A stretch of DNA of 64,000 nt, taken from Fidelibacterota bacterium (GTDB lineage Bacteria; Fidelibacterota; UBA2242). The notes beneath the pieces are model-generated. The model did not search any database, was not told where the DNA came from, and saw nothing but the letters and a program-made list of their open reading frames with translations. Both the position numbers and the translations under genes were made by a program. Of this stretch, positions 7,634 to 56,017 are shown one piece after another (position 1 is the stretch's first letter; each line of letters opens with the position of its first letter). The stretch lies in NCBI GenBank assembly GCA_041645495.1, contig JBAZPZ010000001.1, positions 9,730 to 73,729 of the forward strand, read 5' to 3'.

Positions 7634-8716
7634 TTATATCGAAAAAATCGGAATTCTTCGCCCGACAACGACACTCACACCGAGTTCACGCGCCCGTTCA
7701 ACGAAGCCATGATAGATTTTATGTGAAACGAAGACAAATCCCTTGGCGTTCAGAAGTTTGATCGTTTGCTGAAAGGCTTTTAGTTCCGTGAACGAATCAT
7801 GCGTAATCGGATACGAAAAACACTGGAAAATATAGAGCGAACTTCCTTTCATCAGCGCAATATCGATCAGGCACTCGTTCTTGATCCCTTCCGGAACGGA
7901 GTCTCTGTCGAGCCGCACATCTAACCGGACGTCGTCGTACTGACTCTTGTGCACACGGAGGAAGACCATTTCCCGGAGCCAACCGCCGTTCAGCAGATAT
8001 TCATCAGGATTCGCGACGATTTCGACCATTTTCTGACTGGCGCCGCCGCCGAACTTGAATTTCATTCTGTCCTGTTCTGCTTCATATTCGATCTGGAGTT
8101 TAACCCTTCCGTCGTCATAATTCCATTTCGCGCTTTGTTTGACATTGCCCATTTTATTCCATTCGTCCCGGATTTTGTCGATAAACGGCATCAGATTGTC
8201 CATGTTGACTGCAATGAAATAGGTCAGCGGGCTTCTTCTGCCGATTTCCGGATCGAAGCGGGTTCCGGAGGTCATTTTGATTCCCTGTAGCGCGATGAAC
8301 TCGTTCACCGTCAGCGCAAGCTGGTAATATTTCGATTCACCCTGGCCGATATTGACAATCTTGGAATGATGCGTATCGATGTAGAAAACCTCTTTGTTGG
8401 CTTTTCGGAAAATGTCCACTGCCAAAGCCGCCTGCAGACGATCGCCGCCGGTAACATTCAACAAAATATCGTGTTCGGGATAATCGCGGAGAACGCCCTG
8501 ACAAAGTTTAACAAAGGAATCAACGTCGTCGCCGAGAATTTCACGCGTTTCGAACATGGGCGTCATATAAGTTGCAATGGCCGTTTCGATTTGTTGGGCG
8601 ATCGCTTTCTGCCGCGGCGTCCGAAGCCAGACGACGGCGTCCGGTTTTTTCAGTACCAAACCGAGAAAGCCATTGATCGGCGAATCATCAAGAAGGCAAA
8701 CTTCCAGTAAAGGCAT
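7634..8716 (-). CDS. DUF1887-family protein; candidate CARF domain plus PD-(D/E)xK nuclease (Card1/Can2-like cyclic-oligoadenylate effector), with no CRISPR nearby
   Basis: The N-terminal Rossmann-like region of the 360-aa ORF has a 'LLNVTGGDR' motif that resembles the CARF 'TGGTK' signature. The C-terminal region 'DVRLDRD...ECLIDIALMKG' is compatible with a restriction-endonuclease fold. This assignment is from memory of the family and has not been searched. Confidence 0.4.
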   Translation of the reverse strand: MPLLEVCLLDDSPINGFLGLVLKKPDAVVWLRTPRQKAIAQQIETAIATYMTPMFETREILGDDVDSFVKLCQGVLRDYPEHDILLNVTGGDRLQAALAVDIFRKANKEVFYIDTHHSKIVNIGQGESKYYQLALTVNEFIALQGIKMTSGTRFDPEIGRRSPLTYFIAVNMDNLMPFIDKIRDEWNKMGNVKQSAKWNYDDGRVKLQIEYEAEQDRMKFKFGGGASQKMVEIVANPDEYLLNGGWLREMVFLRVHKSQYDDVRLDVRLDRDSVPEGIKNECLIDIALMKGSSLYIFQCFSYPITHDSFTELKAFQQTIKLLNAKGFVFVSHKIYHGFVERARELGVSVVVGRRIPIFSI

Positions 8717-8897
8717 CTTCGACTCCTTTTTTTCCGTTTTTCATATTGTTCAAACGCCTTAAAACTTATTTACGCTTGAATTTACTAATAAATTTTTCTT
8801 TGTCAAGAACGGAATTTTATTTTTCCGGGAAAAGAAGTAAATAAGCAGTTCCCTAAATTGGAAACCGCTTATTTTGGAAATGATGTAGCCGGGATGT

Positions 8898-9944
8898 TTA
8901 TTTTATCGTCGGTTGCAGATAGTGGAATATCTTTCCTTCGTAATTCTTCAGGACGACTTCGTTTTCGTTGATTTCCTGCAAGTATTCGGGAAGAAGCGGA
9001 ATCTTTCCACCACCGCCAGGTGCATCTATGACAAACTGTGGAACGGCCATGCCGGATGTCCATCCGCGGATCGATTTGATGATCTCTAATCCTTTTTCGA
9101 CGCTGGTCCGAAAGTGTTCCGTCCCGTAAACCATGTCCGCCTGATAAATGTAGTAGGGTTTGACGCGGGCGGCCAGCAATTTCTGCATGAGTTTTTTCAT
9201 CACCACCGGATCATCGTTGACGCCTTTGAGCAGGACGGTCTGATCGCCCAACGGAATTCCTGCGTCGGCAAGTCGTCCCAGCGCCTTCACGGCGACCGGC
9301 GTCAGTTCATCCGGATGATTGAAATGCACGTTCATATAGAGCGGATGATATTTTTTCAGCATCTTGACGAGTTTGCTGGTGATTCGCTGGGGCAGGTAAC
9401 AAGGGACACGCGTGCCGATTCGGAGAATCTCGATGTGTTTGATCTTACGAAGCCTCGATAAGACGCTCTCGATCTGCTTATCGCTGAGAAGCAACGGATC
9501 GCCGCCCGAAATAATCACATCCCGGATTTCCGGATGGCTGGCAATGTACTTGATTCCCTGATCGATGAATTTCAGACTGATCTTGGTCGGGTCGCCGACT
9601 TTTCGCTTGCGGGTGCAAAACCGGCAGTACGAAGCGCAGTCGTGCGAAACCAAAAACAGGCATCTGTCGGGATACCGATGCACGATGCTGGGAACGGGCG
9701 AATCCTTTTCCTCGCAAAGCGGATCGGAAAATAGTTTATCCTGCTGAAGTTCCGCCAAGTCGGGAATGACCTGTTTATAGATCGGATCGCCTTTTTCCTT
9801 GATCAGCGATAAATAATACGGATTGATTTTGATATCGAATACCTTATCCAATCCTTTCAACTCTTCAATCGGAATGTTGAATTTTTCCGAGATTTCCTCG
9901 ATGGTCGTCAGACTTTTCTTTAATATTTTTTGCCACCGCTCCAT
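8898..9944 (-). CDS. Lysine 2,3-aminomutase family radical-SAM enzyme (KamA/AblA/EpmB-like)
   Basis: The 348-aa ORF has the CxxxCxxC radical-SAM motif 'CASYCRFCTRK' and KamA-family sequence throughout. Confidence 0.8.
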   Translation of the reverse strand: MERWQKILKKSLTTIEEISEKFNIPIEELKGLDKVFDIKINPYYLSLIKEKGDPIYKQVIPDLAELQQDKLFSDPLCEEKDSPVPSIVHRYPDRCLFLVSHDCASYCRFCTRKRKVGDPTKISLKFIDQGIKYIASHPEIRDVIISGGDPLLLSDKQIESVLSRLRKIKHIEILRIGTRVPCYLPQRITSKLVKMLKKYHPLYMNVHFNHPDELTPVAVKALGRLADAGIPLGDQTVLLKGVNDDPVVMKKLMQKLLAARVKPYYIYQADMVYGTEHFRTSVEKGLEIIKSIRGWTSGMAVPQFVIDAPGGGGKIPLLPEYLQEINENEVVLKNYEGKIFHYLQPTIK

Positions 9945-9958
9945 GGCTGATTCGACTC

Positions 9959-10453
9959 CTACTCTTTCTCTTTTGGTTTAAAATATTTGACAAAAATAAC
10001 ACGGTCATCGCCTTCACGGTAAAAATCCCTGATCTGCGCGGCGATCGTGTAACCGTTTCGTAAATAGAATCCGCGGGTCGGTAAGTATTTCTCGACCGAG
10101 GATGTTTCGATAATGATCAATCTGCCGACTTTTCGGGAAACCTCACCTTCGACAAATTGAAGCAATTGTTTGCCGATTCCCTGATTTTGGCAAACCACGT
10201 CCACGACGATCCAGTAAAGATCGAAGGTTCCGATTGTCGCCGGGGTCGGTCCGTAGCATACATAACCGACAATAGAATCCGTTTCGTCGGTTGCCACTTG
10301 AATGGTGTAATCCTTTTGTTCTTTTTGATTCAGGCAGACGTCGATGAGTTCCATCGCTACATCCACCTCCGCCGGAGAAAACATGCCAGTCTGCCTGATA
10401 ATCTGAAGGAGAACCGACCGGTCTTCCGGTTTGATTGAACGAATGTTAATCAT
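9959..10453 (-). CDS. GNAT-family N-acetyltransferase (AblB-like by context)
   Basis: The 164-aa ORF has the GNAT acetyl-CoA motif 'QNQGIGKQLL'. It lies 14 nt upstream of the kamA-like gene and overlaps the ATP-grasp stop. Confidence 0.7.
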   Translation of the reverse strand: MINIRSIKPEDRSVLLQIIRQTGMFSPAEVDVAMELIDVCLNQKEQKDYTIQVATDETDSIVGYVCYGPTPATIGTFDLYWIVVDVVCQNQGIGKQLLQFVEGEVSRKVGRLIIIETSSVEKYLPTRGFYLRNGYTIAAQIRDFYREGDDRVIFVKYFKPKEKE

Positions 10454-11468
10454 GATCCTTTCTTTGTAATGCCGTGATGATTTGTGTCGTCACGAATTCA
10501 TCGTATGAAATTCCCGCGGCTTTCAGCGCTTTGACATATCCCGCCGTGGGAGAGATATCGGGATTCGGATTGTATTCAAGAATGTAAATTTCACCGTGCT
10601 TATCCATCCGAAAATCGACTCGCCCATAACCGCTTCCGTTTAGCAATTCGTACACCCGAAGTGCAAGCGATTGGAGGCGGGCTTGCGTGGCGGAATCCAA
10701 CGTCGTCGGACAGACGGAAGGTGTCTTTTGATAAATGGGATCGTCTTCGCACCATTTCGCATCATAACTTGCGATGTGCGGCAAAGCGGCATCGAGCGCA
10801 TCGAACAGGATTTCCGATGGCGGCAGGGCAACCGGCGAACCGTTTTCCAGAATACCGACGGCAAATTCCCGTCCGTCAACAAACTGCTCGACCAAAATTT
10901 CCTGATGATATCGTTGCAATAACCGTTCGACCGAGGTTTTCAGTTCGGTCATATTCCGGATCACGGCGTTCCGGTCGATTCCGATACTTCCGTCTTCTCT
11001 TGAAGGTTTGGCGATCAACGGAAACCGTAAATGTGTTGCCGCCGGTACATCGGAAAAAGTCTCATAATCGGGAGTCGTTAAACCGGTCGCCCGAAGCATC
11101 TGCTTGGTCAGCACCTTATTCTGTGCGGTTCCAATTGTCAGCGCCGAATTCCCGGTGTACGGGATGTTCAGGAGTTCCCAGATTCCGGCAACGAACATTT
11201 CCTGCTGTGTGTTTCCGCGAAATCCTTCACACAGGTTGAAAATGACGTCAGGTTGAAACGAAACAATCATCTGAATATCTGAAGTCAGATTCTTCAACGG
11301 CAGAACGAGAAGTTGATATCCGAGTCGATCCAGCGACTGCGAAACGGCATCCGCCTCATCTTTAACGCCGGCTTCCGATAAAAATTCGGCATTCTCCGGA
11401 CTGGAGACGTCTTCGAAAGAATTATAGACGACTGCAACTTTTTTTCGTTGTTCTTCTTCGGCAGTCAT
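10446..11468 (-). CDS. ATP-grasp ligase, D-Ala-D-Ala ligase family (paralogue 2)
   Basis: The ORF track gives 10446..11663. The likely true start is 'MTAEEEQRKKVAVVYNSF' at 11468, which overlaps the stop of the upstream ATP-grasp gene in an ATGA arrangement. Ddl-like motifs are present. Confidence 0.7.
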   Translation of the reverse strand: MTAEEEQRKKVAVVYNSFEDVSSPENAEFLSEAGVKDEADAVSQSLDRLGYQLLVLPLKNLTSDIQMIVSFQPDVIFNLCEGFRGNTQQEMFVAGIWELLNIPYTGNSALTIGTAQNKVLTKQMLRATGLTTPDYETFSDVPAATHLRFPLIAKPSREDGSIGIDRNAVIRNMTELKTSVERLLQRYHQEILVEQFVDGREFAVGILENGSPVALPPSEILFDALDAALPHIASYDAKWCEDDPIYQKTPSVCPTTLDSATQARLQSLALRVYELLNGSGYGRVDFRMDKHGEIYILEYNPNPDISPTAGYVKALKAAGISYDEFVTTQIITALQRKDHD

Positions 11469-12517
11469 TATCGGAGGCCGCACCTCGCGGCAGATATGTC
11501 GAGGACTCGATTGAGCATTTGTGAATATGAATAGCCGGCTGTTCGCGCGGCTTTGGGGAAGCAGGAATTCTCGCGTGGATCGGGCAAGATTCCCGGAAGC
11601 GGGTTCAGTTCGAGAATATTTGGAACGCCGTCCGCATCCAAACGCACGTCGATCCGGCACCAATCGCGAATGTTCAGAACCTGATATGCGCGCTTGACCG
11701 TTTTTTCGATCGACGCTCTTAATTCAGGAGAAATCTTCGCCGGACAATCAAAAATATCCAGCGGCTTTTCGGTGGTATCCCACACCCATTTTGCTTCGAA
11801 GGAATAAATCGGTTGCGCGTCTTTCGGCAACTGAGAAAAATTCATCGAGATGATCGGCAGAACTTCGACTTCGGCGCCGTTTCCCCAGAGAGCGACGGTG
11901 AACTCGCGCCCCGGTAAAAACTCCTCAATGATCACCGGTTGCTGATATTTGTCGAAGTTTTCCCGCACAATTCGTTTCAACGATTCATAGTCTTTGACAA
12001 CGGAATTGTTAAAAATGCCTTTACTGCTTCCCTCCGAGATCGGCTTGACGATTGACGGAAATGGAGTGCCGCTTTCCGGAACTTCCTGATCGGGAAAAAT
12101 CATCCGGAACCGCGGATTCGGAACATCGTAATAACTTAAAATTTCCTTGGAACGGGCTTTATTCAGGCAAATCGCCAGCGTCAGCGGGCCCGAACCCGTA
12201 TACGGTAAACCTAAACGCTCGCACATCAACGGAACATAAGACTCGCGCAAGTCCCCAAATAATCCTTCGGCTACGTTAAAGACGATTTGCGGCCTGGCTT
12301 TTTCCAACCGCCGCATAATCGCATCATCGCCTTCGAAGCCGACGACCTCGTGCCCGTTTTCTTTGAATGAATTGATGATAGAATGTACCGTCCGAAGACT
12401 ATCGCCTTCGGCGAAAAGGTCGGGAGGAATATCTTCGTCATCCAGCTCGGAGGCGAAGCGTTTTTTATACTCCTTCACTAAACCTTTTTTCGTACTATAA
12501 GTGACAGCGATCTTCAT
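11468..12517 (-). CDS. ATP-grasp ligase, D-Ala-D-Ala ligase family (paralogue 1)
   Basis: The 349-aa ORF starts 'MKIAVTYSTKKG', a Ddl-like N-terminus. The pattern 'E.LPG.E...L.....L..LNP.PG' matches the ATP-grasp C-terminal region. Confidence 0.7.
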   Translation of the reverse strand: MKIAVTYSTKKGLVKEYKKRFASELDDEDIPPDLFAEGDSLRTVHSIINSFKENGHEVVGFEGDDAIMRRLEKARPQIVFNVAEGLFGDLRESYVPLMCERLGLPYTGSGPLTLAICLNKARSKEILSYYDVPNPRFRMIFPDQEVPESGTPFPSIVKPISEGSSKGIFNNSVVKDYESLKRIVRENFDKYQQPVIIEEFLPGREFTVALWGNGAEVEVLPIISMNFSQLPKDAQPIYSFEAKWVWDTTEKPLDIFDCPAKISPELRASIEKTVKRAYQVLNIRDWCRIDVRLDADGVPNILELNPLPGILPDPRENSCFPKAARTAGYSYSQMLNRVLDISAARCGLR

Positions 12518-12621
12518 TTTTGTCGCGGTGAATTTAAGTATATTTTCACAGAATAAAAGAAATATTTTTGGAAATTTTTAAAAAAATTTTGTGGCACTAT
12601 ATATACAACCGGAAGCGCAAA

Positions 12622-13272
12622 TTATTTCAGCGGTACAATATATTTGACCATCAGGATAAAATGGCAAACACTGCCCAGAATCACGAACAAGTGGAAAATT
12701 TCATGAAAACCAAAGACTGGCGGAAAGGGATTCGGCCATTTTTTTGAATAGATGACGGCGCCGATTGTATAAAAGAGTCCACCGGCCAGCAACCAGACCA
12801 ACGCTTCCCACCCAACTGCGCGAACGAGTGGAACCAGTGCGATCACTGCCAGCCAGCCCATCAAAACGTAAATTGCTGTCGCAAGCCGACGAGGCGCTTC
12901 CATCCAAACGGTTTTCAAGATGATTCCAATAAGCGCCGTTGCCCACACCAATCCAAACAAAGTCCAGCCCCATCCGCCCCGAATCGGGATCAGGCAGATG
13001 GGCGTATAGGTCGAGGCAATAAAGATGAAGATCATCATGTGGTCGATCCGTCGGAGTCGAAGCGTATTTTCCTCGGATAAATTTAACCAATGATAGACGG
13101 TGCTCGCTGTATAGGACAACAGCATTCCTGCCCCGTAAATCGAAAAACTGACGATATGCCACGGTTTTGCCGGATGGCTGGAACGAAGGATGAGAATGAC
13201 CAGCGCCGCGACTGACGCTAACACACCGAGAAAATGTATGAATCCGCTGACGGGATCTTTGAACTTTTTCAT
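12622..13272 (-). CDS. Hemolysin III / PAQR-family channel protein
   Basis: The 216-aa ORF has seven TM segments and the conserved HlyIII motifs 'YHW', 'RRIDH' and 'FHEIFH'. Confidence 0.8.
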   Translation of the reverse strand: MKKFKDPVSGFIHFLGVLASVAALVILILRSSHPAKPWHIVSFSIYGAGMLLSYTASTVYHWLNLSEENTLRLRRIDHMMIFIFIASTYTPICLIPIRGGWGWTLFGLVWATALIGIILKTVWMEAPRRLATAIYVLMGWLAVIALVPLVRAVGWEALVWLLAGGLFYTIGAVIYSKKWPNPFPPVFGFHEIFHLFVILGSVCHFILMVKYIVPLK

Positions 13273-13323
13273 TCTAAATATTCTTTCTTACAAGGGATGG
13301 TACCGGTACGCCGGACATCAGAA

Positions 13324-14502
13324 TCATTGTCCGATATTGAATGCCTTTTGCAGAGTGTTGAAATAAGACGGCTCGTCGGCAAACGTATCATAAGAAAAGA
13401 AAACCACATTGCGGAAGCCGCTCGATAGGCTGATCATCGTTTTTGCCATCGCATCGAATTTATTCTGGTTGTAAACGCCGATTCCCATCCAGATTCTACT
13501 TTTCGGGATGGACGGATCGATTTCCCGCGTGATGGTCTCAAACCTGTCGGCGTTTCTGGCATAATTCATCGGAACCGCGAAATCGATCCAATCGTTTTTC
13601 AGCCACGTTTCCCAATCCTGAAAGAAATGATTTTTCGCTTCGACCGGATCGGGTTTGACAGCGGTGCTAAGTTTAACAGGTTTCTGCGTGGCCGTCAGAG
13701 ATTCCCGAATACCGCGAATCAGTTCGTTGATGCCTTCTCTCCGGAATTCACTCCAGTCGTCCATGGTCTGTTCCAGCACCCGATCGTCCCATCCGGCATA
13801 GAACGATTTGTTGGAGATGGACAGAAGAATCGGATCGACACCACTTTTCTGTTTGAATCGAAACCGCGCCTGCTCGTTGAAGTCGTAGGTGTTTTTCGGA
13901 TACCGGACATAATCTAAATGCACACCGTCGATCGGATATTTCTGTACCAATTCGGAGACTATTTGAATGAGATGAAGCCGAACTTCCGGGACGAGCGGTG
14001 AGAGATAAATTCCTTCCGTTCCGTTCTTCCTGAATTCGTTGGCGGAGCGATCGATATCCCGGATTCCATTTGCATCGATCGCACACCATTCCGGATGTTT
14101 CCAAAAAAGATGTTCGCGGTTCTTCGGTCTGTCATCCGAAGACCACAATAAATAAACGTTCAGCCAGACGTGAACTTTCAACCCGTTGGCGTGAGCCATG
14201 ACGAGCGCATAGTCGAGCGGATCGAAATCGCTCCCGTTGAGTCGGTCGGCCATCGGCGCGATTTCCGAACGGTAATACGCATCGCCGCGACCTCTGACCT
14301 GAATGAAGAGATCAGTGAATCCGTTGAGTGACGCAAATTCGACAAAACGATCAATGTTCTTCTTGTCCGTCATCTGGTTGCGGACGATCCACAGACCAAG
14401 ATGGCGTTCCTGCGAAAAGAGTTCGGAGAAATTCATCAGGATAAAAAGAAAGAGGGCAGCGAATATCGCTGCCCAACGGTTATTTCGCCGATCGTTATGC
14501 AA
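13324..14502 (-). CDS. Glycoside-hydrolase-like GHL10 (DUF187/YngK) family protein, secreted
   Basis: The 392-aa ORF has a signal peptide and the motifs 'GFTDLFIQVRGRGDAYY' and 'DGVHLDYVRYP', typical of the GHL10 TIM-barrel family. Confidence 0.55.
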   Translation of the reverse strand: MHNDRRNNRWAAIFAALFLFILMNFSELFSQERHLGLWIVRNQMTDKKNIDRFVEFASLNGFTDLFIQVRGRGDAYYRSEIAPMADRLNGSDFDPLDYALVMAHANGLKVHVWLNVYLLWSSDDRPKNREHLFWKHPEWCAIDANGIRDIDRSANEFRKNGTEGIYLSPLVPEVRLHLIQIVSELVQKYPIDGVHLDYVRYPKNTYDFNEQARFRFKQKSGVDPILLSISNKSFYAGWDDRVLEQTMDDWSEFRREGINELIRGIRESLTATQKPVKLSTAVKPDPVEAKNHFFQDWETWLKNDWIDFAVPMNYARNADRFETITREIDPSIPKSRIWMGIGVYNQNKFDAMAKTMISLSSGFRNVVFFSYDTFADEPSYFNTLQKAFNIGQ

Positions 14503-14516
14503 TCGGAAGTTCGCTT

Positions 14517-15011
14517 TTATTCTCCCTTCTTCTCGGTTTTTGGAGCCGGAGTGGGAGCCTCGGTTTTTCCCTTGGCTTCGGTGGGAACTTCCTTCCCTTT
14601 TTCGGCGGATTCTTTTTTGGAAGGCTTTGCCGGTTTCTTTTCTTCGACCGGTTTTTTATAATCGACAAATTCGATGAGCGAAACCGCGGCGGCGTCGTTA
14701 TCCCGGAATCCTAATTTGACGATTCGCGTATATCCGCCGTTGCGCGTCGCATATTGCGGCGCGATGTGGTCGAATAACTGCTTGACGAGGGTTCTGTCAT
14801 TCAGAACTTTGTAAGCGAGTCTTCTGTGGTGAATCGTGCCTTTTTTCCCAAAGGTGATGAGACGTTCGACGACGCGTCTGAGTTCTTTCGCACGGGCGTC
14901 GGTCGTCTTGATTTTTCCATGTTGGATCAGCGAACCTGCCATATTGGATAACATCGCCTTTCGGTGACTGGCTACCATCCCAAGTTTCGCTACACGTTTC
15001 TGGTGGCGCAT
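14517..15011 (-). CDS. rplQ: 50S ribosomal protein L17 with a 45-aa Lys/Glu/Pro-rich C-terminal extension
   Basis: The L17 core is followed by a 'KKPVEEKKPAKPSKKESAEKGKE...' tail. Confidence 0.9.
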   Translation of the reverse strand: MRHQKRVAKLGMVASHRKAMLSNMAGSLIQHGKIKTTDARAKELRRVVERLITFGKKGTIHHRRLAYKVLNDRTLVKQLFDHIAPQYATRNGGYTRIVKLGFRDNDAAAVSLIEFVDYKKPVEEKKPAKPSKKESAEKGKEVPTEAKGKTEAPTPAPKTEKKGE

Positions 15012-15032
15012 TTCTACAAACTCCTATCGGTG

Positions 15033-16010
15033 TTAATCTTCTTTTTCAATTAAATATTTCTCGACATCGACTCCGAATTCGAGGTTCATGCTTTTGAGTT
15101 TCGCCATCAGCTCGTTCAACGATTTGCGTCCGAAATTCTTGAACTTCAGCATCTCCGACTCTTCTTTCGAAACCAGGTCGGCAATCGTCCTGATATTATT
15201 GGCTTTCAGGCAATTATACGAACGAACGGAAAGTTCCATCTCATCGACACTCTTCTTCAGCAGGTTCCGCACTTTGACGATATCCTCGTTAGGAATATCC
15301 TTCGGGAAATCGACCGGTTTAGATTCCACTTTGGAAAAGAGCGAGAAATATTCTTTCAGCAGATTCGAGGCAATGTCAATGGATTCTTCCGGCGTGATGC
15401 TTCCGTCGGTTTCGATTTCCAGCGTCATCTTTTCCAGAATTTCCCGGGACGTGCCTGGCAGGTTTTCGACCTGGAAAGAAACGTTGGTGATCGGCGAAAA
15501 GATGGAGTCGATGAAAATCGTGCCGATCGGGTAATCAATCGTCTTGTTTTTCTCGGCCGGCACCCAGCCGGTTCCGCGCGATATTTTCAATTCTATCGTG
15601 AAATCTGCTTTTTCGTTCAGCGTACAGATATGAATCTCTGGATTGAGAATCTTGAACTGCGTCGTGTCTTTGCCGATCTCGCCGGCGAGAAGTTCGCCTT
15701 CGCCTTTGCAGTGAAGATGAATTTTGTCCGGTTTCGGATCATACAATTTCAGACGCACCTGTTTGAAGTTGAGGATTATGTCCGCCACATCTTCCTTGAC
15801 GCCTGTAATGGAGGCAAATTCATGAAGAACGCCGTCTATTTTGATCGACGAGATTGCGGCGCCGGGAATCGAAGTCAACAGGACTCGTCGGAGCGCATTT
15901 CCGATCGTCGTTCCAAAACCGCGCTCCAACGGTTGTACGACATAAACGCCGTGCGTGGCTGTGGATTGTTCTTTTACAACTCTGGCTATGATTTGCTCTT
16001 GTGTGGTCAT
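15033..16010 (-). CDS. rpoA: DNA-directed RNA polymerase alpha subunit
   Basis: The 325-aa ORF has the RpoA NTD and CTD. Confidence 0.95.
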   Translation of the reverse strand: MTTQEQIIARVVKEQSTATHGVYVVQPLERGFGTTIGNALRRVLLTSIPGAAISSIKIDGVLHEFASITGVKEDVADIILNFKQVRLKLYDPKPDKIHLHCKGEGELLAGEIGKDTTQFKILNPEIHICTLNEKADFTIELKISRGTGWVPAEKNKTIDYPIGTIFIDSIFSPITNVSFQVENLPGTSREILEKMTLEIETDGSITPEESIDIASNLLKEYFSLFSKVESKPVDFPKDIPNEDIVKVRNLLKKSVDEMELSVRSYNCLKANNIRTIADLVSKEESEMLKFKNFGRKSLNELMAKLKSMNLEFGVDVEKYLIEKED

Positions 16011-16021
16011 TTATCTCCTCA

Positions 16022-16651
16022 CTATTTAGAATAGAGTTCAACGACTAATTGTTCGTTCACGTCCACACCCATTTGGTCTCTTTCGGGAACCTGAACAAAA
16101 ATGCCCTGCAGTTTGGCTTTGTCAAGGATCAGCCAGGAAAGTTCATGGTCGCCGTGAATTCGTTTCATGGATTCATGGATAGCGTCCATTTTCCGGCTTT
16201 TTTCTCTGACCTGAATGACGTCGTTTGATTTAACGAGATAGGAAGGAATGGTGACGATTTTCCCATTGACGGTAAAATGTCTGTGGCTGACCAACTCGCG
16301 CGCCATTTTCCTGGAGGATGCGAATCCAAGCCGATAGACGACATTGTCGAGGCGGGTTTCCAAAAGTTTCATCAGGTTGGTGCCTGTGATGCCTTTCTGT
16401 CCGGTCGCGATCTCGAAATAGCGTCTGAACTGCTTTTCAAATATCCCGTAAATTCTCTTGATTTTTTGTTTCTCTCTCAACTGCAAACCGTAGTTTGACA
16501 GCCGTCTGCGATTGGTCTGTCCATGTTGTCCCGGGACGTAGCTCTTTGTCTCGAAAGAGCATTTGGTGCCGTTGCACCGCTCGCCTTTCAGAAAGAGCTT
16601 CTTGCCTTCTCTGCGGCACAACTTACAAACCGGACCTGTATATCTTCCCAT
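16022..16651 (-). CDS. rpsD: 30S ribosomal protein S4
   Basis: The 209-aa ORF starts with the S4 N-terminus 'MGRYTGPVCKLCRREG'. Confidence 0.95.
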   Translation of the reverse strand: MGRYTGPVCKLCRREGKKLFLKGERCNGTKCSFETKSYVPGQHGQTNRRRLSNYGLQLREKQKIKRIYGIFEKQFRRYFEIATGQKGITGTNLMKLLETRLDNVVYRLGFASSRKMARELVSHRHFTVNGKIVTIPSYLVKSNDVIQVREKSRKMDAIHESMKRIHGDHELSWLILDKAKLQGIFVQVPERDQMGVDVNEQLVVELYSK

Positions 16652-16675
16652 CTATGATACTCCCAAGATTTGACT

Positions 16676-17068
16676 TTATACCCTTCTGCGTTTCGGAGGC
16701 CTGCATCCGTTATGCGGGATGGGCGTGACGTCTTTGATCGACATGATCTGGAGTCCTGCCAGATTCAGCGCGCGTATGGCGGCTTCTCTGCCAGCACCCG
16801 GGCCTTTGACCCGAACTTCGACGCGGCTCAATCCCAGTTCCATCGCTTCCTTTGCGGCTTTCGTGGATGCCAACTGAGCGGCAAACGGAGTGTTTTTCCG
16901 GGAGCCTTTGAAACCGGCGGCTCCCGCCGATGCCCACGAGATCACATTTCCGAAATTATCCGTGAGCGAAATGATTGTATTATTAAAGGTCGCCTTGACG
17001 GTCGCTATACCTTCGGCGTCCGCCCTAATTTTTTTCTTCTTCTTCGTTGCGGCACGTTTTTGTGGCAA
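16676..17068 (-). CDS. rpsK: 30S ribosomal protein S11
   Basis: 130 aa; S11 sequence. Confidence 0.95.
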
Positions 17069-17085
17069 TTCAGATACCTCCTTTA

Positions 17086-17472
17086 TTATCCTTTCTTACC
17101 GACTTTCGTCTTCTTCCTGCTGACCGTCCGTCTCGGACCTTTAGCGGTGCGGGCGTTGGTCTTCGTGCGCTGTCCTCTGACAGGCAATCCACGTCTGTGT
17201 CTAAGGCCCCGATAGCTTCCGATTTCCATCAGACGCTTGATATTCATCTGGTTTTCCGTTCGGAGCGCGCCTTCGACTTTTTCTTCGTTGCTGATCACGT
17301 TTCGTATGTCTTTGACCTGTTCTTCTGTCAGATTTTTCACACGGATTTCGGGATCGACATTCGCTTTCAGCAGAATATTCGTGGCTGTAGTTAGACCTAT
17401 ACCAAAGATATAGGTCAAAGCAATTTTTACTTTTTTATCATTAGGTAAATCTACACCGGCAATTCGAGCCAA
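17086..17472 (-). CDS. rpsM: 30S ribosomal protein S13
   Basis: The ORF starts '[10 protein letters not shown]', as S13 does. Confidence 0.95.
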
Positions 17473-49993: not shown

Positions 49994-50110
49994 ATTAAAA
50001 ATATTTATTTGTGGATACTGGCTTAGGAGAATTCTTAGTGAGGATATTTAATTGTACTGGCGGTTTGTCCAGATCGCTGGTATTGATGAGTTTGAGAATA
50101 CCGTTGTCGG

Positions 50111-51652
50111 TTACGTAAACGATTCGTTCCAAATCAAACGTGCCAGAAAATAGGGAAACGAATTGTCCTGTATATTTACCCGTTCGAATTTAACAAGCAT
50201 CAGAATCGAATCTTTTCCTTCCATCGGATCTTTCACACATAGCTTAGCAGGGAAAATGCTGTGCCAAAGATTTTGATAGAAATATCTCTTTGCGTTTTGG
50301 GCGACAATATTTTTTAAATCCGGATCGGATTCTCTTCTCAAAGAGTTACCAATACCCTCAAGCAATTGATTGAAAAAGTTACCGTCCGGATAAATTTTAT
50401 TATCTTCTAAAAAACGTTTTAAATCACAATATGATTGCAGAATGGCTTTTCTGATTTGGTTATCATCAAGAACTTCAACAGGTTCAAAGAGCGTAGCCAA
50501 CATTTTTTCATAAGGCATTCTTTGGTTGAATTCAAGATTGAACCAGGCGCGCATCGCAATCATAAAAAAGAACGCTGCGTCCTTCGGACACAAATCGTCC
50601 GCGATCTGGCCATGAGACGACCAGTTTCGCAATAATTTCATCTGCCGCTCATAGTTGTTCTTGAAACGGTATTCAATGTCAAAGTTTGATAAATGCTCAA
50701 TAAAATGACCGGCGCTCATTTCCCATTCGGCGGATAGTTCTTTGATGAACTGATAATAGAGTGACTCAGCGTTTTCCGGCGGATTCAGCGGGAAAAAATT
50801 CTCCAGCTTTGACAGATAATCGCGGATATATTCCTTTTCAATTTTTGAATCTGTTGTTCTGTTGAAAAGAATCCACTCAGCGATTTCTTTTTCCAGCCGG
50901 TCTTTTAAATAACGGCAGGCATTGATGATTCCCCTTCTCAGTGCAATGTACGGAAAGTGCGCTCCGCGTTTAGTCAGGCGATTGTCGAGCCAGGCATGGA
51001 AATTCGCGACGTCGCTCTTGTGAATCGAAGGTGCCAATTCGGATAAAGCATCACAAAATTTTTCCTCAAAACGGTCATAAAGGTCTTTATTGGTTTCTCC
51101 GGCTTTCATCTTCCGAATGACTTCGGTTAGAAACTCATTTATCCGCTGAATATTGCCCATCGTCTGATATTCCTGCAATATTTCATCAAACGCCTCGTTG
51201 TCCGGGTCAGAAAGCAACTCTCTGATTTTTGCGATAATACCTATAAAATGCTCGGGATTTTTTGTTTCCAGCAGACGGTCTTTATAGGTTTTGACCCGGT
51301 AACCATTGGAAGCATGTCCTGTCAGGAAAACAATCCGGTCGTTATGAAATCCTTGCCGTATTAGCTGCTGATAGAGATAAAATCCGGACTCCTCGAGAAA
51401 CTCTGTATTTTTTCGCCCAAATTCATGGGCAATTTTTCTCACCAATTCCGTTTCCGGAAAATCTTTCAGATTAAGGTCGAATACGACAAGATCATATTCC
51501 GAAGTCGCTCTATGAATAGCGGCGTAACAGTCATCAAAATTGCGGGGAATATCCAGCCGGTTTACTTCGTCGGTGAAAAAACCGCTTTCCTGAAAGAGGA
51601 TACGGTCTCTTTGATCACCCTGCGGGGCGTCTTCGATCCAGAGAATGTTCAT
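50111..51652 (-). CDS. Response-regulator receiver (REC) domain protein fused to a ~400-aa domain of unknown function
   Basis: The N-terminus 'MNILWIEDA...DLVVFDLNLKD' is a CheY-like acidic pocket and phospho-acceptor Asp pattern. Its start overlaps the upstream kinase gene in an ATGA arrangement. Its C-terminus is paralogous to the 160-aa protein. Confidence 0.6.
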   Translation of the reverse strand: MNILWIEDAPQGDQRDRILFQESGFFTDEVNRLDIPRNFDDCYAAIHRATSEYDLVVFDLNLKDFPETELVRKIAHEFGRKNTEFLEESGFYLYQQLIRQGFHNDRIVFLTGHASNGYRVKTYKDRLLETKNPEHFIGIIAKIRELLSDPDNEAFDEILQEYQTMGNIQRINEFLTEVIRKMKAGETNKDLYDRFEEKFCDALSELAPSIHKSDVANFHAWLDNRLTKRGAHFPYIALRRGIINACRYLKDRLEKEIAEWILFNRTTDSKIEKEYIRDYLSKLENFFPLNPPENAESLYYQFIKELSAEWEMSAGHFIEHLSNFDIEYRFKNNYERQMKLLRNWSSHGQIADDLCPKDAAFFFMIAMRAWFNLEFNQRMPYEKMLATLFEPVEVLDDNQIRKAILQSYCDLKRFLEDNKIYPDGNFFNQLLEGIGNSLRRESDPDLKNIVAQNAKRYFYQNLWHSIFPAKLCVKDPMEGKDSILMLVKFERVNIQDNSFPYFLARLIWNESFT

Positions 51653-54153
51653 TGCTCTTTCTCCTTGTTGAGTTGTTTTGCCAGAAGCTCAAAATCCAAT
51701 TCCGTTTTTGGTTTATATGGCACGAAAATATCTTTCAGAAAACGAAACGTCACCTGGAATTTTCCGTTTTCTTCACGCCAGGTAAAGACTTTGTCTTTTT
51801 CCCGAATGTCATTCAGCATTTCAAGGTCGTTTTGAATTCCCTCCAACCCTTTTCCAGTACTAATCGATACGTTTTGTGTGTAGGGATTTTCCCACTCGCA
51901 TACCAGGAACGTCCGGTTTTCGATTTCCTCTTCGTGAAATCTAACATCAATCCAGATATCTTGTTCAATATCACGGTATTTCAGCGCATTGAACAGCAAT
52001 TCCTGAAAATAGCCCTGAAGCAAGGCTTCCGAGTAGCCGTCACGCCGCAGACGAATCGCATTCCAGAGCGGACTCAGCGTACAATCAATCCTGCCAATGT
52101 TGGCACTCGCCCATTCGATGGCACTGCGGTTGGGATTGAAGAAGACGTTCTCTTCAAAATCCACTCTTAGCTGGTCTAAAGTTGTTCCCCGCCGGGCGCA
52201 GATTTGCGTGCGAATTGGGTCTAATTTCCGGTAATCCGCATTCAGGAAGCGGGCGACGATGCGTTGAACAGAACTATTCAGGATTTCCTTTATGCTGATT
52301 GCCTTTTCCGTCATGTCTTCTGGCAGACGATCACCGCGGATCAACTGCTGAAATTCCGCTGGATTGCCGGTATTACGTGCCTGCAGAAGCAAACCCTGAT
52401 TTCGAATAATCGTCTCGGCGAGGTAAGCGTCGGTCAATATCCGAGCATCGCGACGGAATTCGATGTGACTCTTGAGGCGATTGGCAACCTCGTAAATCGC
52501 ATTCGGATAAAGCGTATTCGCTAACGTATGCGAATACTGTTGGATCATGCGCTCTTTTTCGCGACGATGATGCTCTGCTTGCCGTGCTAATTCTTCTTTT
52601 TTTTCATCCTCATCAGACCTTCTCTTTTCCTCCGTAATCTGAAAAATTCGTTCATTCAGTTTCACTAAAATACCGATATATAATTTAGACTTTAGAATAA
52701 CATCTGAAGTGTTCGCACTTTTAGGTTTTTGATATTCGTATATAGTATTGTCCACCCCATCCGGTAGAACTTCATTTCCAGATCGATCAAGTTCTCCCGC
52801 TGGTTCAAGCTTAGACGGAATTATTGAGTCGCCGAAGAAATTTTCCAGAATGAGTGATTTAATATTAAGCGTATAGAGTTCTCGTCCCTTGTTACCAAAG
52901 TGCTGAAGATACTCATCCAGGATAAAATCCAAATTTTGGCTGAATTTATATTGTGGGAATTTCAACTCTAATAGAAAATCCAGTTCTCCAAAATCTTCGG
53001 TTGGTTTTAACTCACCACCAGGGTTAACTAAATATTTAATAATGCTGTCTTCATCTCCGAGTCCTTGAACTTCCAAAGATGAAAAACCGAATATTTTGTT
53101 GCATATCGAATAGAACTGTTCAAGCGAAGCGAACAAACAAGAGTCACCAATGGCTCCAATTATATCAGGTAATATTTGTGGCAATGGTGAGATAAAATTT
53201 TCCGAAAATAAAGCAACCTCAATAGATAAAAAATCTTTAGGCTTATTAGGTATATTGCTGATAAAAGCCTTCAAATTATTTTCATAGAGATCTTTTTCTC
53301 TGTTTCGCAAATAAATGTATGAAAGGTAAGCAGGAACAGCCCACTTGACATACATCATATAAACTTGGGGCATACTTTCTGCTACCTTTAAATCTTTTAG
53401 AAAGGATTGCAATTGCAGAAAATCACTTAAGGCTAAGTTGAAATTTTCTGCTTTCAAATAGCACTTGGCTCGATTATAGAGAACTTCTGGTTTAAATTTA
53501 TCCTTTAAAATTATTGAAAAATCTTTACCGGCTTTTTCATACTCATCTAAAATAAAAAATAATTTTGCTCTTTTTTCATAGGAAATTGAATCAGGTTCAA
53601 TTTCAATAGCTTTTGTGTAGGCTTCCACCGCCTTGCTATATTCTCCTCTAATTCTATTTTGATCTCCAAGTTTTATCCAACCGGATTTCAATTTTGGATC
53701 AATTTTTACAGCATTAGAAAAATCATTTAATATCTCATTATCTGGCATTTCCATCGGATCCAGCAAAGCATTTCTGACACTTCCTCGAAAGTAATAGTAT
53801 TTGGCAACATTCGGATTCAATTCTATTGCCTTATTAAAACTATTTATCATACAGCCATATTCATCCTTATCCCTCCAAAGCCAAAACAAATCCTTTGGTC
53901 TATCACACCAAAGGATCAATCCTTTTAAAAAGTAATATTCTGCATAATTGGGATTTAAACTGATAGCCTGATCTATATCTCCATGCGCCTCATCAAACAT
54001 TCCTTTATCTTTGTAAGCAATCGCCCTCATGTAATAGTTGTCAGGATTTTTACTGTCTTTTTCAATGAGTTTGCTCAATTCCTCAATTGAAAGATTTTTC
54101 ATGCCATCACTTTTCATTTTTTTATCTCCGCCATTGGATTGCAATTTTCCCAC
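51649..54153 (-). CDS. Cytoplasmic TPR-repeat protein fused to an atypical histidine-kinase-like (GHKL) ATPase domain
   Basis: The 834-aa ORF has ~400 aa of N-terminal TPR repeats and a coiled coil. It has a candidate H-box 'QQYSHTLANTLY', an N-box 'ELLFNALKY' and a G-box 'STGKGLEG'. No TM segments are present. The TPR-encoding half is AT-rich. Confidence 0.55.
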   Translation of the reverse strand: MGKLQSNGGDKKMKSDGMKNLSIEELSKLIEKDSKNPDNYYMRAIAYKDKGMFDEAHGDIDQAISLNPNYAEYYFLKGLILWCDRPKDLFWLWRDKDEYGCMINSFNKAIELNPNVAKYYYFRGSVRNALLDPMEMPDNEILNDFSNAVKIDPKLKSGWIKLGDQNRIRGEYSKAVEAYTKAIEIEPDSISYEKRAKLFFILDEYEKAGKDFSIILKDKFKPEVLYNRAKCYLKAENFNLALSDFLQLQSFLKDLKVAESMPQVYMMYVKWAVPAYLSYIYLRNREKDLYENNLKAFISNIPNKPKDFLSIEVALFSENFISPLPQILPDIIGAIGDSCLFASLEQFYSICNKIFGFSSLEVQGLGDEDSIIKYLVNPGGELKPTEDFGELDFLLELKFPQYKFSQNLDFILDEYLQHFGNKGRELYTLNIKSLILENFFGDSIIPSKLEPAGELDRSGNEVLPDGVDNTIYEYQKPKSANTSDVILKSKLYIGILVKLNERIFQITEEKRRSDEDEKKEELARQAEHHRREKERMIQQYSHTLANTLYPNAIYEVANRLKSHIEFRRDARILTDAYLAETIIRNQGLLLQARNTGNPAEFQQLIRGDRLPEDMTEKAISIKEILNSSVQRIVARFLNADYRKLDPIRTQICARRGTTLDQLRVDFEENVFFNPNRSAIEWASANIGRIDCTLSPLWNAIRLRRDGYSEALLQGYFQELLFNALKYRDIEQDIWIDVRFHEEEIENRTFLVCEWENPYTQNVSISTGKGLEGIQNDLEMLNDIREKDKVFTWREENGKFQVTFRFLKDIFVPYKPKTELDFELLAKQLNKEKEQ

Positions 54154-54320
54154 CTAACCAGCACAACACCGACTTCGAAAGATGTGATGCCGGCACTTAA
54201 TGTAATCCTTACCCCAAATAAATAGTTTATAATCAAAGCAAAATAGAGAAAACCGAAAATTCTGAGTTCTCCCGACCAGGTCGTTTCTGTCTGTTCTGTT
54301 TCAATTTTCAGGATTTTCAT
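54114..54320 (-). CDS. Possible small membrane protein (68 aa) upstream of the TPR-kinase gene; could be spurious
   Basis: It has one hydrophobic segment. It overlaps the annotated kinase start by 40 nt, but does not overlap if the kinase starts at the internal Met codons at 54117 or 54102. Confidence 0.2.
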   Translation of the reverse strand: MKILKIETEQTETTWSGELRIFGFLYFALIINYLFGVRITLSAGITSFEVGVVLVRWENCNPMAEIKK

Positions 54321-54540
54321 GTTTTCTTCTTTTTGCTACTTTTGCTTCATGTTTTCAAATGTCGATCTCACTTATGCAATTAATAAACCAAAACCAAATT
54401 TCATGTCCCTGACGTACAATTTTCCCGATTCGCCCGATAGAAAAAATGAAATGTAATGGTTATATCCAAGAAGTCGGTAGTTCTGAACCGGTAAAAATCT
54501 TTACTTTCATCTGTCAAAATTTTTTCAACCCAAATTGTCT

Positions 54541-55701
54541 TTATCTTTCCTCCACTATCTTCCCAATTTCCTCCACCGGTAGTGCTATAACCTGCTCACT
54601 AACCGGATAGGTTTCTTTACCGGGATAGACGACGAAACCACGTTTGCATTCAAGGTCAGCGAAGCCGGTATGGAAACCACGCGAGAGTTGCGGGGTGGAA
54701 GTGAATTTAACTTCAATAGCGATCCGTTCGCCGGATGATTTAACGATGACCAAATCTATTTCAACTCCGGTGTTGGTACGGTAAAAATATTTTTCCCAAT
54801 GAGCAGGTAGAAGATTGATAATTTGCTCGATAACGAATCCTTCCCATGAATGACAAAGAATTGGATGTCCATAAAGTTCATCAGACGTGGACAAATTGAG
54901 AAGCGCATGAAGCAAACCGGTATCGCGAAAATAAATCTTCGGAGACTTAATTAGTCGCTTTTTCAAATTGAGATGATATGGTTGAATCTGCCGAACAACA
55001 AATGCGCTTTCCAGAATATTCAAATAATGAACTGCGGTCGGTTGTGAAATTCCGAGACTGGAAGCGATTTGGCTACCATTCCACAGTTGTCCATGCGTGT
55101 GGGCAATCATTTGCCAGAATTTACGAAGCTGAAGAGCAGGAATTCGAATACCTAACTGAGGAATATCTCTTTCTAAAAAAGTTCGGATATAAGCGCTGCG
55201 CCAAATCAGACTATTAGAATCTGAATCCGCCAGAAAGCTATCAGGCAACCCTCCGCGAAACCATAATCTTTGGATAGAATCGGTTTGATTACCGATTTCT
55301 TCCGTCTGAAACGACGGTAATTCATGATAGATAATCCGGCCGGCTAAACTTTCGGAAGATTGTTTTAGCAGGGCGGGCGAAGCCGAACCAAGAATGAGGA
55401 AACGTCCCGGAACCCGATTTTGGTCAACGAGCGTGCGGAGAATTGCGAAGAGTTCAGGAAATTTCTGGACCTCATCAATAATCACGAGCGAATTTTGATA
55501 TTGGTTCAAATAGAGTTCCGGATCCGTAAGTTTGGCGAAATCCGACGGTAATTCTAAGTCAAGGTAGCAAGCGCCAGTGTAATTTTTGAAAATTTTGCGT
55601 GCCAAAGTTGTCTTTCCAACCTGCCGGGCGCCAAGGATTCCCACGACCGGGAACTGTTTGAGAGAATCCAACACGATGTTTTGTAGTTTACGCTGTATCA
55701 T
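54541..55701 (-). CDS. AAA+ ATPase with a DUF4143 C-terminal domain (AAA_14/DUF4143 family)
   Basis: The 386-aa ORF has the Walker A motif 'GARQVGKTTL'. Its architecture is typical of the DUF4143 ATPases common in variable regions. Confidence 0.7.
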   Translation of the reverse strand: MIQRKLQNIVLDSLKQFPVVGILGARQVGKTTLARKIFKNYTGACYLDLELPSDFAKLTDPELYLNQYQNSLVIIDEVQKFPELFAILRTLVDQNRVPGRFLILGSASPALLKQSSESLAGRIIYHELPSFQTEEIGNQTDSIQRLWFRGGLPDSFLADSDSNSLIWRSAYIRTFLERDIPQLGIRIPALQLRKFWQMIAHTHGQLWNGSQIASSLGISQPTAVHYLNILESAFVVRQIQPYHLNLKKRLIKSPKIYFRDTGLLHALLNLSTSDELYGHPILCHSWEGFVIEQIINLLPAHWEKYFYRTNTGVEIDLVIVKSSGERIAIEVKFTSTPQLSRGFHTGFADLECKRGFVVYPGKETYPVSEQVIALPVEEIGKIVEER

Positions 55702-55801
55702 GGTTGCAAATTAAAAGATAGCCTTTCAATTTGCAAGGTTAATTTTTATTGTGGTCATACCGGTAATACCGTATATTACCACCAATGAAAATGGAGCCAA
55801 T

Positions 55802-56017
55802 ATGAAACCTGTAACATTCAAAATTGACGATGAATTGATTAACGAAATCGATGCGCTCGCGCAAGAACTGCATGAAAACCGGAGTTCATTGATTAAAAAA
55901 GCGTTGAACTTTTACCTTGACAATTATGACGGTATTGTTGCCAAGACTCGGCAGGATGACCCGGAAAGAGTCATGATTCCGCATGAAGACGTGTTAAAAG
56001 AATATGGCCTCTTGTAA
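55802..56017 (+). CDS. Ribbon-helix-helix (CopG/RelB/ParD-like) antitoxin
   Basis: The start is 'MKPVTFKIDDELINEIDALA...RSSLIKKALNFYL'. A GGAG RBS lies upstream. It overlaps the toxin gene by 14 nt. Confidence 0.7.
   Translation: MKPVTFKIDDELINEIDALAQELHENRSSLIKKALNFYLDNYDGIVAKTRQDDPERVMIPHEDVLKEYGLL

Follow-up and report, generated by a model that had tools for sequence, protein, structure and literature searches.

The AblA/AblB pathway makes N-epsilon-acetyl-beta-lysine in methanogens and some Chlorobi. Carnosine synthase and the bacterial L-amino-acid ligases are ATP-grasp enzymes that make free dipeptides, the former with a beta-amino acid as acyl donor. In Sinorhizobium and Pseudomonas, the Ngg/AsnO pathway, attributed to Sagot and colleagues in 2010, reportedly makes N-acetylglutaminylglutamine amide. 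Here, we analyzed a four-gene locus that recalls each of these systems in part. It lies in a 64,000-nucleotide stretch of a Fidelibacterota bacterium genome (GenBank assembly GCA_041645495.1, contig JBAZPZ010000001.1, positions 9,730 to 73,729; hereafter, the window) and encodes two Ddl-like ATP-grasp ligases (AG1 and AG2), a GNAT-family N-acetyltransferase (GNAT) and a lysine 2,3-aminomutase homolog (KamA). We propose, with about an even chance of being right, that this cassette constitutes a self-contained cytoplasmic pathway from L-lysine to a small beta-lysine-containing amide, such as a short oligoamide or a 'peptide' of two or three residues.

The four genes form one tight run on the minus strand (window 8898-12517) in the order AG1, AG2, GNAT and KamA (Table 1). 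The four open reading frames (ORFs) had been placed here by a previous annotation made from the letters only (the sequence-only reading), and the ORF listing agreed. Domain searches agreed with its gene assignments, with Dala_Dala_lig_C in both ligases, Acetyltransf_1/7 in the third gene, and Radical_SAM with LAM_C in the fourth. As it had stated, AG2 and GNAT overlap by 8 nt at 10446-10453 (letters ATGATTAA), and the GNAT stop is separated from the KamA ATG by 14 nt, within which we noted a GGAG. A 4-nt ATGA overlap had further been described at 11468; these letters are present, but the AG1/AG2 junction is in fact TAATG with a 1-nt overlap, formed by the AG1 stop TAA (11470..11468) and the AG2 ATG. 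The mechanical ORF of AG2 reaches further upstream, to a TTG at 11663. The overlaps and abutments, the terminator-like hairpin that closes the run and the separate promoter-like site (TTGACA-16-TAAATT, 8806..8779) of the next gene, which encodes a Card1-like nuclease, make the four genes look like one transcription unit. The AT-rich intergenic region 5' of AG1 is presumed, from its position only, to act as the promoter. No sigma-54 consensus was detected in this region and no sigma-70-like site lies wholly inside it; the nearest sigma-70 consensus match (12650..12621) begins within the trhA coding sequence.

To determine how widely the arrangement is conserved, one genome per species was scanned, which yielded 80 loci with a KamA 60-97% identical to that of the window. 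The KamA of locus L001 was 97% identical, which identifies the source of the window as a Marinimicrobia (Neomarinimicrobiota) relative. The ordered cassette AG1-AG2-GNAT-KamA was complete in 70 of the 80 loci and in 59 of the 64 that extend at least 3.3 kb upstream of KamA, with median gaps between the genes of about -4, -8, and +6 nt. This arrangement is far beyond chance. The hosts span more than ten bacterial phyla and include Marinimicrobia, Calditrichota, KSB1, Zhuqueibacterota, Lentisphaerota, Kiritimatiellae, Aminicenantes/Acidobacteriota, Gemmatimonadota, and Desulfobacterota. AG1-AG2-KamA without the GNAT gene occurs in two archaeal metagenome-assembled genomes (MAGs), AG2-GNAT-KamA in a few Victivallales loci, and KamA alone in one further Victivallales locus. 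In the reduced Victivallales loci, the neighbors (LacI, UvrD, DnaK) were unrelated and gave no functional clue. The archaeal and Victivallales variants show that KamA together with the ligase(s) forms the core of the cassette, so the ligases are not the 'extra' genes that they had been called.

Two further gene orders were found by starting from the sequence of PDB entry 2R7H, to which the window GNAT is orthologous. In Desulfovibrio mangrovi (L083), a sigma-54 activator gene is followed by KamA-AGa-AGb-GNAT, where AGa and AGb denote the type-a (AG1-like) and type-b (AG2-like) ligases, and then by a gene for a fusion of a GNAT-like domain with an HDAC domain (GNAT-like–HDAC). Two G20-like Oleidesulfovibrio contigs (L084, L085), whose GNAT is 99% identical to 2R7H, have the same activator and order without the fusion gene. 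In Gammaproteobacteria the order is KamA-AGa-AGb-(GNAT-like–HDAC)-GNAT. In a Woeseia MAG (L086), the type-b ligase gene appears to be split over several frames, and tblastn pieces cover residues 5-336 of a gammaproteobacterial ortholog; the gene has either decayed to a pseudogene or been misassembled. In many phyla, and in any of three gene orders, the two ATP-grasp genes thus accompany kamA and the GNAT gene; the lack of co-conservation that the sequence-only reading had named as a refutation of its beta-lysine interpretation was not observed. The ordered, overlapping cassette, the two additional gene orders and the natural AG2–GNAT fusions described below indicate that the genes are functionally coupled.

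KamA matched Pfam Radical_SAM and LAM_C. Among the NCBIfam models it scored highest on AblA (468 bits), followed by glutamate 2,3-aminomutase (424), arginine 2,3-aminomutase (347), and EpmB (231). It failed the AblA equivalog cut-off (TIGR03820, 525.4 bits) as well as the EpmB cut-off (TIGR03821, 369 bits), and the only cut-off passed was that of the generic KamA model TIGR00238 (302 bits, cut-off 199). As a control, E. coli EpmB was scored with both models, giving 534 bits for EpmB and 220 for AblA. AblA was likewise the best model for the archaeal and Desulfovibrio cassette KamAs (447-509 bits); in these proteins and in the window KamA, the alignment to the 417-position AblA model stops at about 360-374. 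The closest structure was that of C. subterminale lysine 2,3-aminomutase (LAM; PDB 2A5H, E=3e-113) with 52% identity, compared with 32% identity to EpmB. In an alignment of 79 cassette orthologs, numbered according to C. subterminale LAM, the Fe-S cysteines C125/C129/C132 and the pyridoxal phosphate (PLP) lysine K337 are kept in the window KamA and in 79 of 79 orthologs. R134, D293 and D330 are invariant in the same set and are also kept in the Desulfovibrio versions. We take R134 to bind the alpha-carboxylate of the substrate, and D293 and D330 to hold the lysine epsilon-ammonium in LAM; glutamate 2,3-aminomutase has K/N at positions 293 and 330. In EpmB, position 330 is occupied by E and GGG is replaced by EPS, whereas the cassette KamAs have the LAM residues (D330, GGGG loop). 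No zinc site was recognized: the ligand C268 is replaced by D, N or E in the orthologs, the C-terminal Cys375/377/380 cluster is missing, and KamA ends about 20 residues past the LAM_C core, the tails of its orthologs being variable and lacking the cluster. On these sequence features, KamA is a short-form aminomutase of the lysine type without the zinc site; its branch placement rests on hidden Markov model (HMM) scores, residues and two reference sequences.

This placement bears on the beta-lysylation of elongation factor P (EF-P), the bacterial process for which short KamA homologs are best known. Like EpmB, the cassette KamA belongs to the short (~340-350 aa) aminomutases that lack the C-terminal zinc domain, and in both systems an amide bond would link beta-lysine to an amine. 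However, the cassette ligases are ATP-grasp enzymes rather than a LysRS paralog, and no efp- or epmA-like gene was found among the conserved neighbors within 4 kb on either side of the 80 loci. As HMM scores, residues and gene context were all against it, with KamA outside the EpmB clade, the EF-P (EpmB) route was rejected. The sequence-only reading had named a position in that clade as a refutation of its beta-lysine interpretation, and this refutation did not materialize.

The window GNAT matched Pfam Acetyltransf_7/1/10. Scanning it against NCBIfam returned only weak RimI (32 bits) and AAC(6') matches and no AblB-named model at E<=1e-3. It is orthologous to 2R7H (E=2.5e-38 over residues 5-154), an uncharacterised structural-genomics entry named 'putative D-alanine N-acetyltransferase', and consists of a single GNAT domain of 164 aa, while AblB proteins are larger and have two domains. 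When 1.84 billion representative proteins were searched, 131 representative clusters were assigned to the GNAT family at E<=1e-30. Among the best 150 matches, 24 were fusions (about 500-560 aa) of an ATP-grasp ligase with a C-terminal GNAT; in the six fusions examined the N-terminal half was an AG2-type ligase, and one such AG2–GNAT fusion lies within an AG1-[AG2–GNAT]-KamA locus. For fusion P0243, in which the ligase precedes the GNAT, the only NCBIfam matches were Ddl models. Other architectures in the family (P0277, P0323) comprised a tandem double GNAT of 330 aa and an N-terminal Cys-rich domain joined to a GNAT (328 aa).

The AG2–GNAT fusions invite comparison with Ngg, in which an acetyltransferase and an ATP-grasp ligase are also fused and cooperate to give an N-acetylated dipeptide solute. 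In contrast to Ngg, the ATP-grasp part of the cassette is Ddl-like, the domain order is opposite, and the beta-lysine building block would be made in situ. Neither the cassette proteins nor fusion P0243 had an Ngg-type NCBIfam match, and the neighborhoods examined contained no AsnO-like amidotransferase. AG2–GNAT resembles Ngg in its way of working, not in family.

AG1 and AG2, which share 32% identity, both matched Pfam Dala_Dala_lig_C (E=1e-32 and E=2e-35, respectively). Both fell below the Ddl cut-offs: AG1 scored 179 bits and AG2 150 bits on NF002378 (cut-off 243), and 142 and 146 bits, respectively, on TIGR01205 (cut-off 245.65). An AlphaFold2 model of AG1 (pLDDT 86, pTM 0.88) matched E. 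coli DdlB structures best (TM 0.74/0.84); this Foldseek search confirmed the Ddl fold and suggested no alternative function. The L-amino-acid ligase BL00235 appeared as a weak PDB hit of AG1. Residues were then numbered by alignment to DdlB, using 73 AG1 and 72 AG2 orthologs. In AG1, E15, K97, K144, E180, E187, K215, R255, D257, E270, and N272 are invariant. In AG2, K97, K144, E187, K215, R255, D257, and N272 are invariant, and E15, E180, and E270 occur in 64-71 of the 72 orthologs (E180 in 64, E270 in 71). Three substitutions, H63 to E, Y216 to W, and M259 to R, are common to both ligases. The D-Ala site of Ddl comprises the E15-S150-Y216 triad, with S281/L282 holding the carboxylate of the second D-Ala. 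The AG1 pocket retains S150, G276, and S281, and the acceptor site of AG2 is remodelled (G149 to D, S150 to A/G, G276 to D, S281 to A, L282 to G). The same type-a/type-b split was observed in the Desulfovibrio, gammaproteobacterial and one archaeal version. As the catalytic residues are conserved, the pockets systematically changed and the Ddl cut-offs missed, both ligases look active and are not true Ddl. By analogy with DdlB, we infer that the acceptor site of the type-a ligase has retained its ability to bind an amino-acid carboxylate and that the type-b ligase binds something cationic instead.

Compared with Ddl and VanA, the cassette ligases share the three-domain fold (AG1 model) and have identical ATP, Mg and acyl-phosphate residues; they differ in a ~20-25-residue insertion before the E15 equivalent, in lacking a dcw/mur context, and in always forming a type-a/type-b pair with KamA. 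Carnosine synthase and the L-amino-acid ligases are distant in sequence and are single enzymes with no aminomutase, acetyltransferase or deacetylase partner. Two paralogous ATP-grasp ligases and a GNAT also make up the microviridin enzyme set, and the radical SAM enzyme alongside could be taken as a further sign of a graspetide-type cluster, in which MdnB/MdnC/MdnD-like enzymes act on a ribosomal precursor peptide. We consider this explanation very improbable, as the ligases are full-length Ddl-type rather than RimK-like enzymes, the radical SAM protein is a PLP aminomutase that keeps the free-lysine-binding residues, and the spacing of the cassette genes (-8 to +14 nt) is too tight to accommodate a precursor gene. 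Nor do different phyla share the flanking genes; flank ORFs of <70 aa were not systematically searched.

Accessory genes, detected by neighbor clustering and tblastn, lie on the same strand as the cassette in several lineages. A histidine kinase gene and a sigma-54 response regulator gene adjoin the cassette in at least 13 loci, and a sigma-54 activator is found in Desulfovibrio as well. A Na+/Ca2+-exchanger-family gene lies beside it in six loci, one of them archaeal, and a gene for a third ATP-grasp protein (AG3) in 14 loci. AG3 (~300-330 aa) has no Pfam match and weak LysX/RimK/Ddl similarity; its gene either precedes those for the kinase and regulator or follows the deacetylase gene. The latter encodes the GNAT-like–HDAC fusion (~580-650 aa) and adjoins the cassette in 14 loci; the gammaproteobacterial copy is internal to the operon and overlaps the GNAT start. 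Its HDAC domain (Pfam Hist_deacetyl, E=2e-71), in which the HH, DxH, and GGY motifs are visible, had the acetylpolyamine amidohydrolases (APAHs) 6PHR (E=8e-69), 9GKZ, 3MEN, and 3Q9B (to 6e-61) as best PDB matches. No NCBIfam family was assigned to the fusion, and its N-terminal domain showed no BLAST similarity to the cassette GNAT. The deacetylase gene is absent within 8 kb on either side of most loci. None of the kinase, regulator, AG3, exchanger and GNAT-like–HDAC genes, nor either of the archaeal insert genes described below, was found in the 64-kb window, the deacetylase having been sought by tblastn. Among the neighbors of the 80 loci, no exporter, peptidase, carrier-protein or efp gene was conserved beside the cassette, which favors a small molecule as the product.

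In a Methanosarcinales MAG (L079), the GNAT gene is replaced by two genes between AG2 and KamA, coding for a 442-aa protein weakly similar to MurL epimerase (E=4e-6) and a LysA/FslC-like PLP decarboxylase, and the cassette is flanked by a Na+/Ca2+-exchanger gene and a PEBP gene. The two inserts hint at an epimerised and/or decarboxylated product. The archaeal replacement of GNAT seems to point to an amino-acid-type intermediate and would suit a polyamine-like end product.

These data allowed us to compare the cassette with AblA/AblB. In both, an AblA/KamA-branch aminomutase and an acetyl-CoA-dependent N-acetyltransferase are encoded in one operon and would form a cytoplasmic small-molecule pathway from lysine. 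The sequence-only reading had equated KamA and GNAT with the ablA/ablB pair, which the proteins do not bear out: the GNAT is of the 2R7H family and has no AblB match, and the KamA is short, zinc-less and below the AblA cut-off. The cassette also contains two Ddl-like core ligases and often a deacetylase. An ordinary N-epsilon-acetyl-beta-lysine osmolyte pathway, with the ligases as passengers such as spare cell-wall Ddl paralogs, would agree with AblA being the top-scoring model for KamA, with the position of the GNAT gene before or after KamA in nearly all bacterial loci, and with a deacetylase of acetyl-lysine/acetylpolyamine type, which fits a side-chain N-acetyl group. Nevertheless, the ligases are steadier partners of KamA than GNAT is and are translationally coupled, AG2 is sometimes fused to GNAT, and the missed Ddl cut-offs and remodelled D-Ala sites are at odds with spare cell-wall enzymes. 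Moreover, an acetyltransferase and a deacetylase in one operon make little sense for an acetylated-monomer end product, and the frequent APAH-like partner, which the sequence-only reading had not noticed, argues against plain N-acetyl-beta-lysine. We therefore regard this explanation as improbable.

The same neighbors bear on whether the ligases act on a macromolecule, that is, whether they attach beta-lysine to a protein (EpmA- or RimK-like) or to a peptidoglycan or envelope precursor, with GNAT supplying a cap. RimK, LysX and D-aspartate ligase are ATP-grasp enzymes that act on proteins or murein precursors, HDAC/GNAT pairs often act on protein lysines, and the Ddl fold of the ligases and the EF-P precedent would agree with such a role. 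However, KamA clearly does not belong to the EpmB clade, in no lineage does a conserved efp, epmA, mur or carrier-protein gene lie nearby, the deacetylase domain is nearest to small-molecule APAHs rather than protein deacetylases, and two-component sigma-54 regulators and ion transporters are misfits for a housekeeping modification. Modification of a macromolecule is thus unlikely.

Alternatively, the ligases could polymerise beta-lysine, with or without another amino acid, to give a cyanophycin- or poly-lysine-like nitrogen store or polycation whose charge is tuned by acetylation and deacetylation. Cyanophycin synthetase likewise combines two amide-forming active sites, the adjoining sigma-54 regulators are of the NtrC type, a third ligase occurs in 14 loci, and the invariant Glu shared by both ligases (H63 to E) could hold the second ammonium of a diamino-acid donor. 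We nonetheless give this possibility a small chance: no depolymerase or cyanophycinase-like neighbor was conserved, there was no sequence sign of primer or polymer binding, and the archaeal variant with an amino-acid decarboxylase suits a small molecule better. To our knowledge, Ddl-type enzymes do not act as polymerases.

The small beta-lysine amide remains, in our view, the best reading, as the sequence-only reading had anticipated with its peptide-bond-forming elaboration of beta-lysine; that part stood, while the product and its role are ones that we infer. In the proposed pathway, KamA would convert L-lysine to beta-lysine, a step well supported by its conserved residues. GNAT would acetylate a single amine, most likely the side-chain epsilon-amine, on either beta-lysine or a ligation intermediate, as suggested by the acetylpolyamine/acetyl-lysine-type deacetylase partner and the AG2–GNAT fusions. 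AG1 and AG2 would each form one amide bond via an acyl-phosphate. AG1 probably couples its substrate to an amino acid, in view of the Ddl residues kept for an incoming carboxylate. AG2 probably accepts a positively charged amine, for example an amine of beta-lysine or another diamine, because it has lost the carboxylate-holding residues and gained two invariant aspartates. Where an APAH-like deacetylase is encoded, acetylation is probably transient and serves to protect the amine or to mask its charge, since an acetyltransferase and a deacetylase from one operon would otherwise be a futile pair, and removal of the acetyl group would give a cationic, polyamine-like product. Where no deacetylase gene lies nearby, as in the window, the product may keep its N-acetyl group and serve as a zwitterionic solute. 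The product is likely cytoplasmic, as no exporter, peptidase, carrier-protein, efp or mur gene is conserved.

Such use of an acyl group has precedents in ArgA/ArgE of arginine synthesis and BtrJ/BtrG of butirosin synthesis (gamma-glutamyl), where the acyl group is added and then removed, sparing an amine while the carboxylate is activated. The cassette is similar in that GNAT and the APAH-like deacetylase share an operon. It differs in that the deprotection enzymes belong to other families and that the deacetylase is absent near many cassettes, and the analogy is itself conjectural.

Several observations weigh against this pathway or parts of it. D293 and D330 do not formally rule out another basic amino acid as the KamA substrate, and the substrate assignments of AG1, AG2 and GNAT derive from pocket residues by analogy with DdlB and partly from the Ddl literature. 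The presence of AG3 in 14 loci may mean that the chemistry is more complex, and the loci without a deacetylase may mean that a protecting-group step is not general. Many hosts come from non-saline groundwater, hot springs and digesters, which weakens a purely osmotic role. Finally, a sigma-54 promoter-like site was found upstream in only 3 of the 16 loci with an adjacent activator, against a background of 6%; with no such site in the window, sigma-54 control of the window cassette was not established.

The sigma-54 two-component regulators and Na+/Ca2+-exchanger genes that adjoin the cassette in several lineages weakly suggest a role in stress protection or cation/charge homeostasis. As a tentative extension that may well not hold, the product could belong to a hitherto unrecognized class of cationic beta-lysine oligoamides, or 'peptidic polyamines', assembled by the ligases on N-acetyl-protected beta-lysine, unmasked by APAH-type deacetylases and serving in charge, ion or stress functions in >10 phyla and some archaea, among which uncultured anaerobes are numerous.

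Table 1. Features of the window and, where a locus number is given, of the comparison loci.
Feature	Position	Strand	Details
AG1, type-a Ddl-like ATP-grasp ligase	11468..12517	-	349 aa; ORF listing
AG2, type-b Ddl-like ATP-grasp ligase	10446..11468	-	340 aa; ATG 11468..11466 read from sequence
GNAT N-acetyltransferase, 2R7H family	9959..10453	-	164 aa
KamA, short-form lysine 2,3-aminomutase (KamA/AblA-like radical SAM, PLP enzyme)	8898..9944	-	348 aa
Terminator-like hairpin	8839..8874	-	15-pair stem, 6-nt loop, T-rich tail; starts 24 nt past KamA stop
AT-rich intergenic region 5' of AG1, presumed promoter and leader	12518..12621	-	104 nt; sequence reading
Card1-like CARF and PD-(D/E)xK nuclease	7634..8716	-	directly downstream of KamA
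trhA, GHL10 and ribosomal-protein gene cluster	12622..17472	-
RtcR-like sigma-54 activator	56300..57760	-	N-terminal CARF-type domain
Low-GC region	50000..56000
GNAT-like–HDAC fusion	L058 9404..11356 (+13 loci); L083 9629..11386; L087 6268..8004		59-64% identity
AG3, third ATP-grasp protein	L027 10875..11858 (+13 loci)
GNAT-replacing genes, Methanosarcinales MAG	L079 4959..7657
Type-b ligase in several frames, Woeseia MAG	L086 5180..6505

Elsewhere in the window, the stand-alone nuclease gene after KamA matched Pfam Card1_endonuc/CARF_Card1 and PADLOC CARF4--CARF_PDDEXK (E=1e-33), and a Card1-like gene occupies the same position in the Marinimicrobia-type loci L001, L003, L005, and L014. A defence-system reading of the cassette was discarded: PADLOC returned no match for any of the four proteins and matched only this unrelated downstream gene. 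Neither CRISPR arrays nor tandem repeats were found in the window. The RtcR-like activator (Pfam Sigma54_activat, RtcR, and weak Cas_Csm6_CARF) is a second orphan CARF protein within 50 kb of the nuclease. The region at 50000..56000 has a GC content of 0.39-0.41, compared with ~0.48 elsewhere in the window; it codes for a 513-aa protein without a Pfam match, an 834-aa TPR protein and a DUF4143/AAA_14 ATPase, and may be an acquired island. On its 5' side, the cassette adjoins trhA (hemolysin III family), a GHL10 glycosyl-hydrolase-like gene and the rplQ-rpoA-rpsD-rpsK-rpsM cluster. These neighbors are shared with L003, L005, and L014 only, which indicates lineage synteny and no functional link.

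Full-text literature searches that covered the aminomutase together with its ATP-grasp, GNAT and deacetylase partners, the Desulfovibrio loci and 2R7H yielded no published account of the module, consistent with the remark of the sequence-only reading that it knew of no such pathway; we know of no such beta-lysine amide as a bacterial metabolite. Given the tight conservation in three gene orders, the natural fusions and the distribution over many phyla and some archaea, the cassette almost certainly makes a physiologically important compound. If the proposed pathway is true, thousands of 'D-alanine--D-alanine ligase' and 'RimI-like acetylase' labels would need correcting, as would MAG-based claims of 'N-acetyl-beta-lysine osmolyte synthesis', and the orphan structure 2R7H would gain a function. 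The module is present in cultured, genetically tractable Desulfovibrio (D. mangrovi and the G20-like Oleidesulfovibrio contigs), in which the proposal is directly testable.

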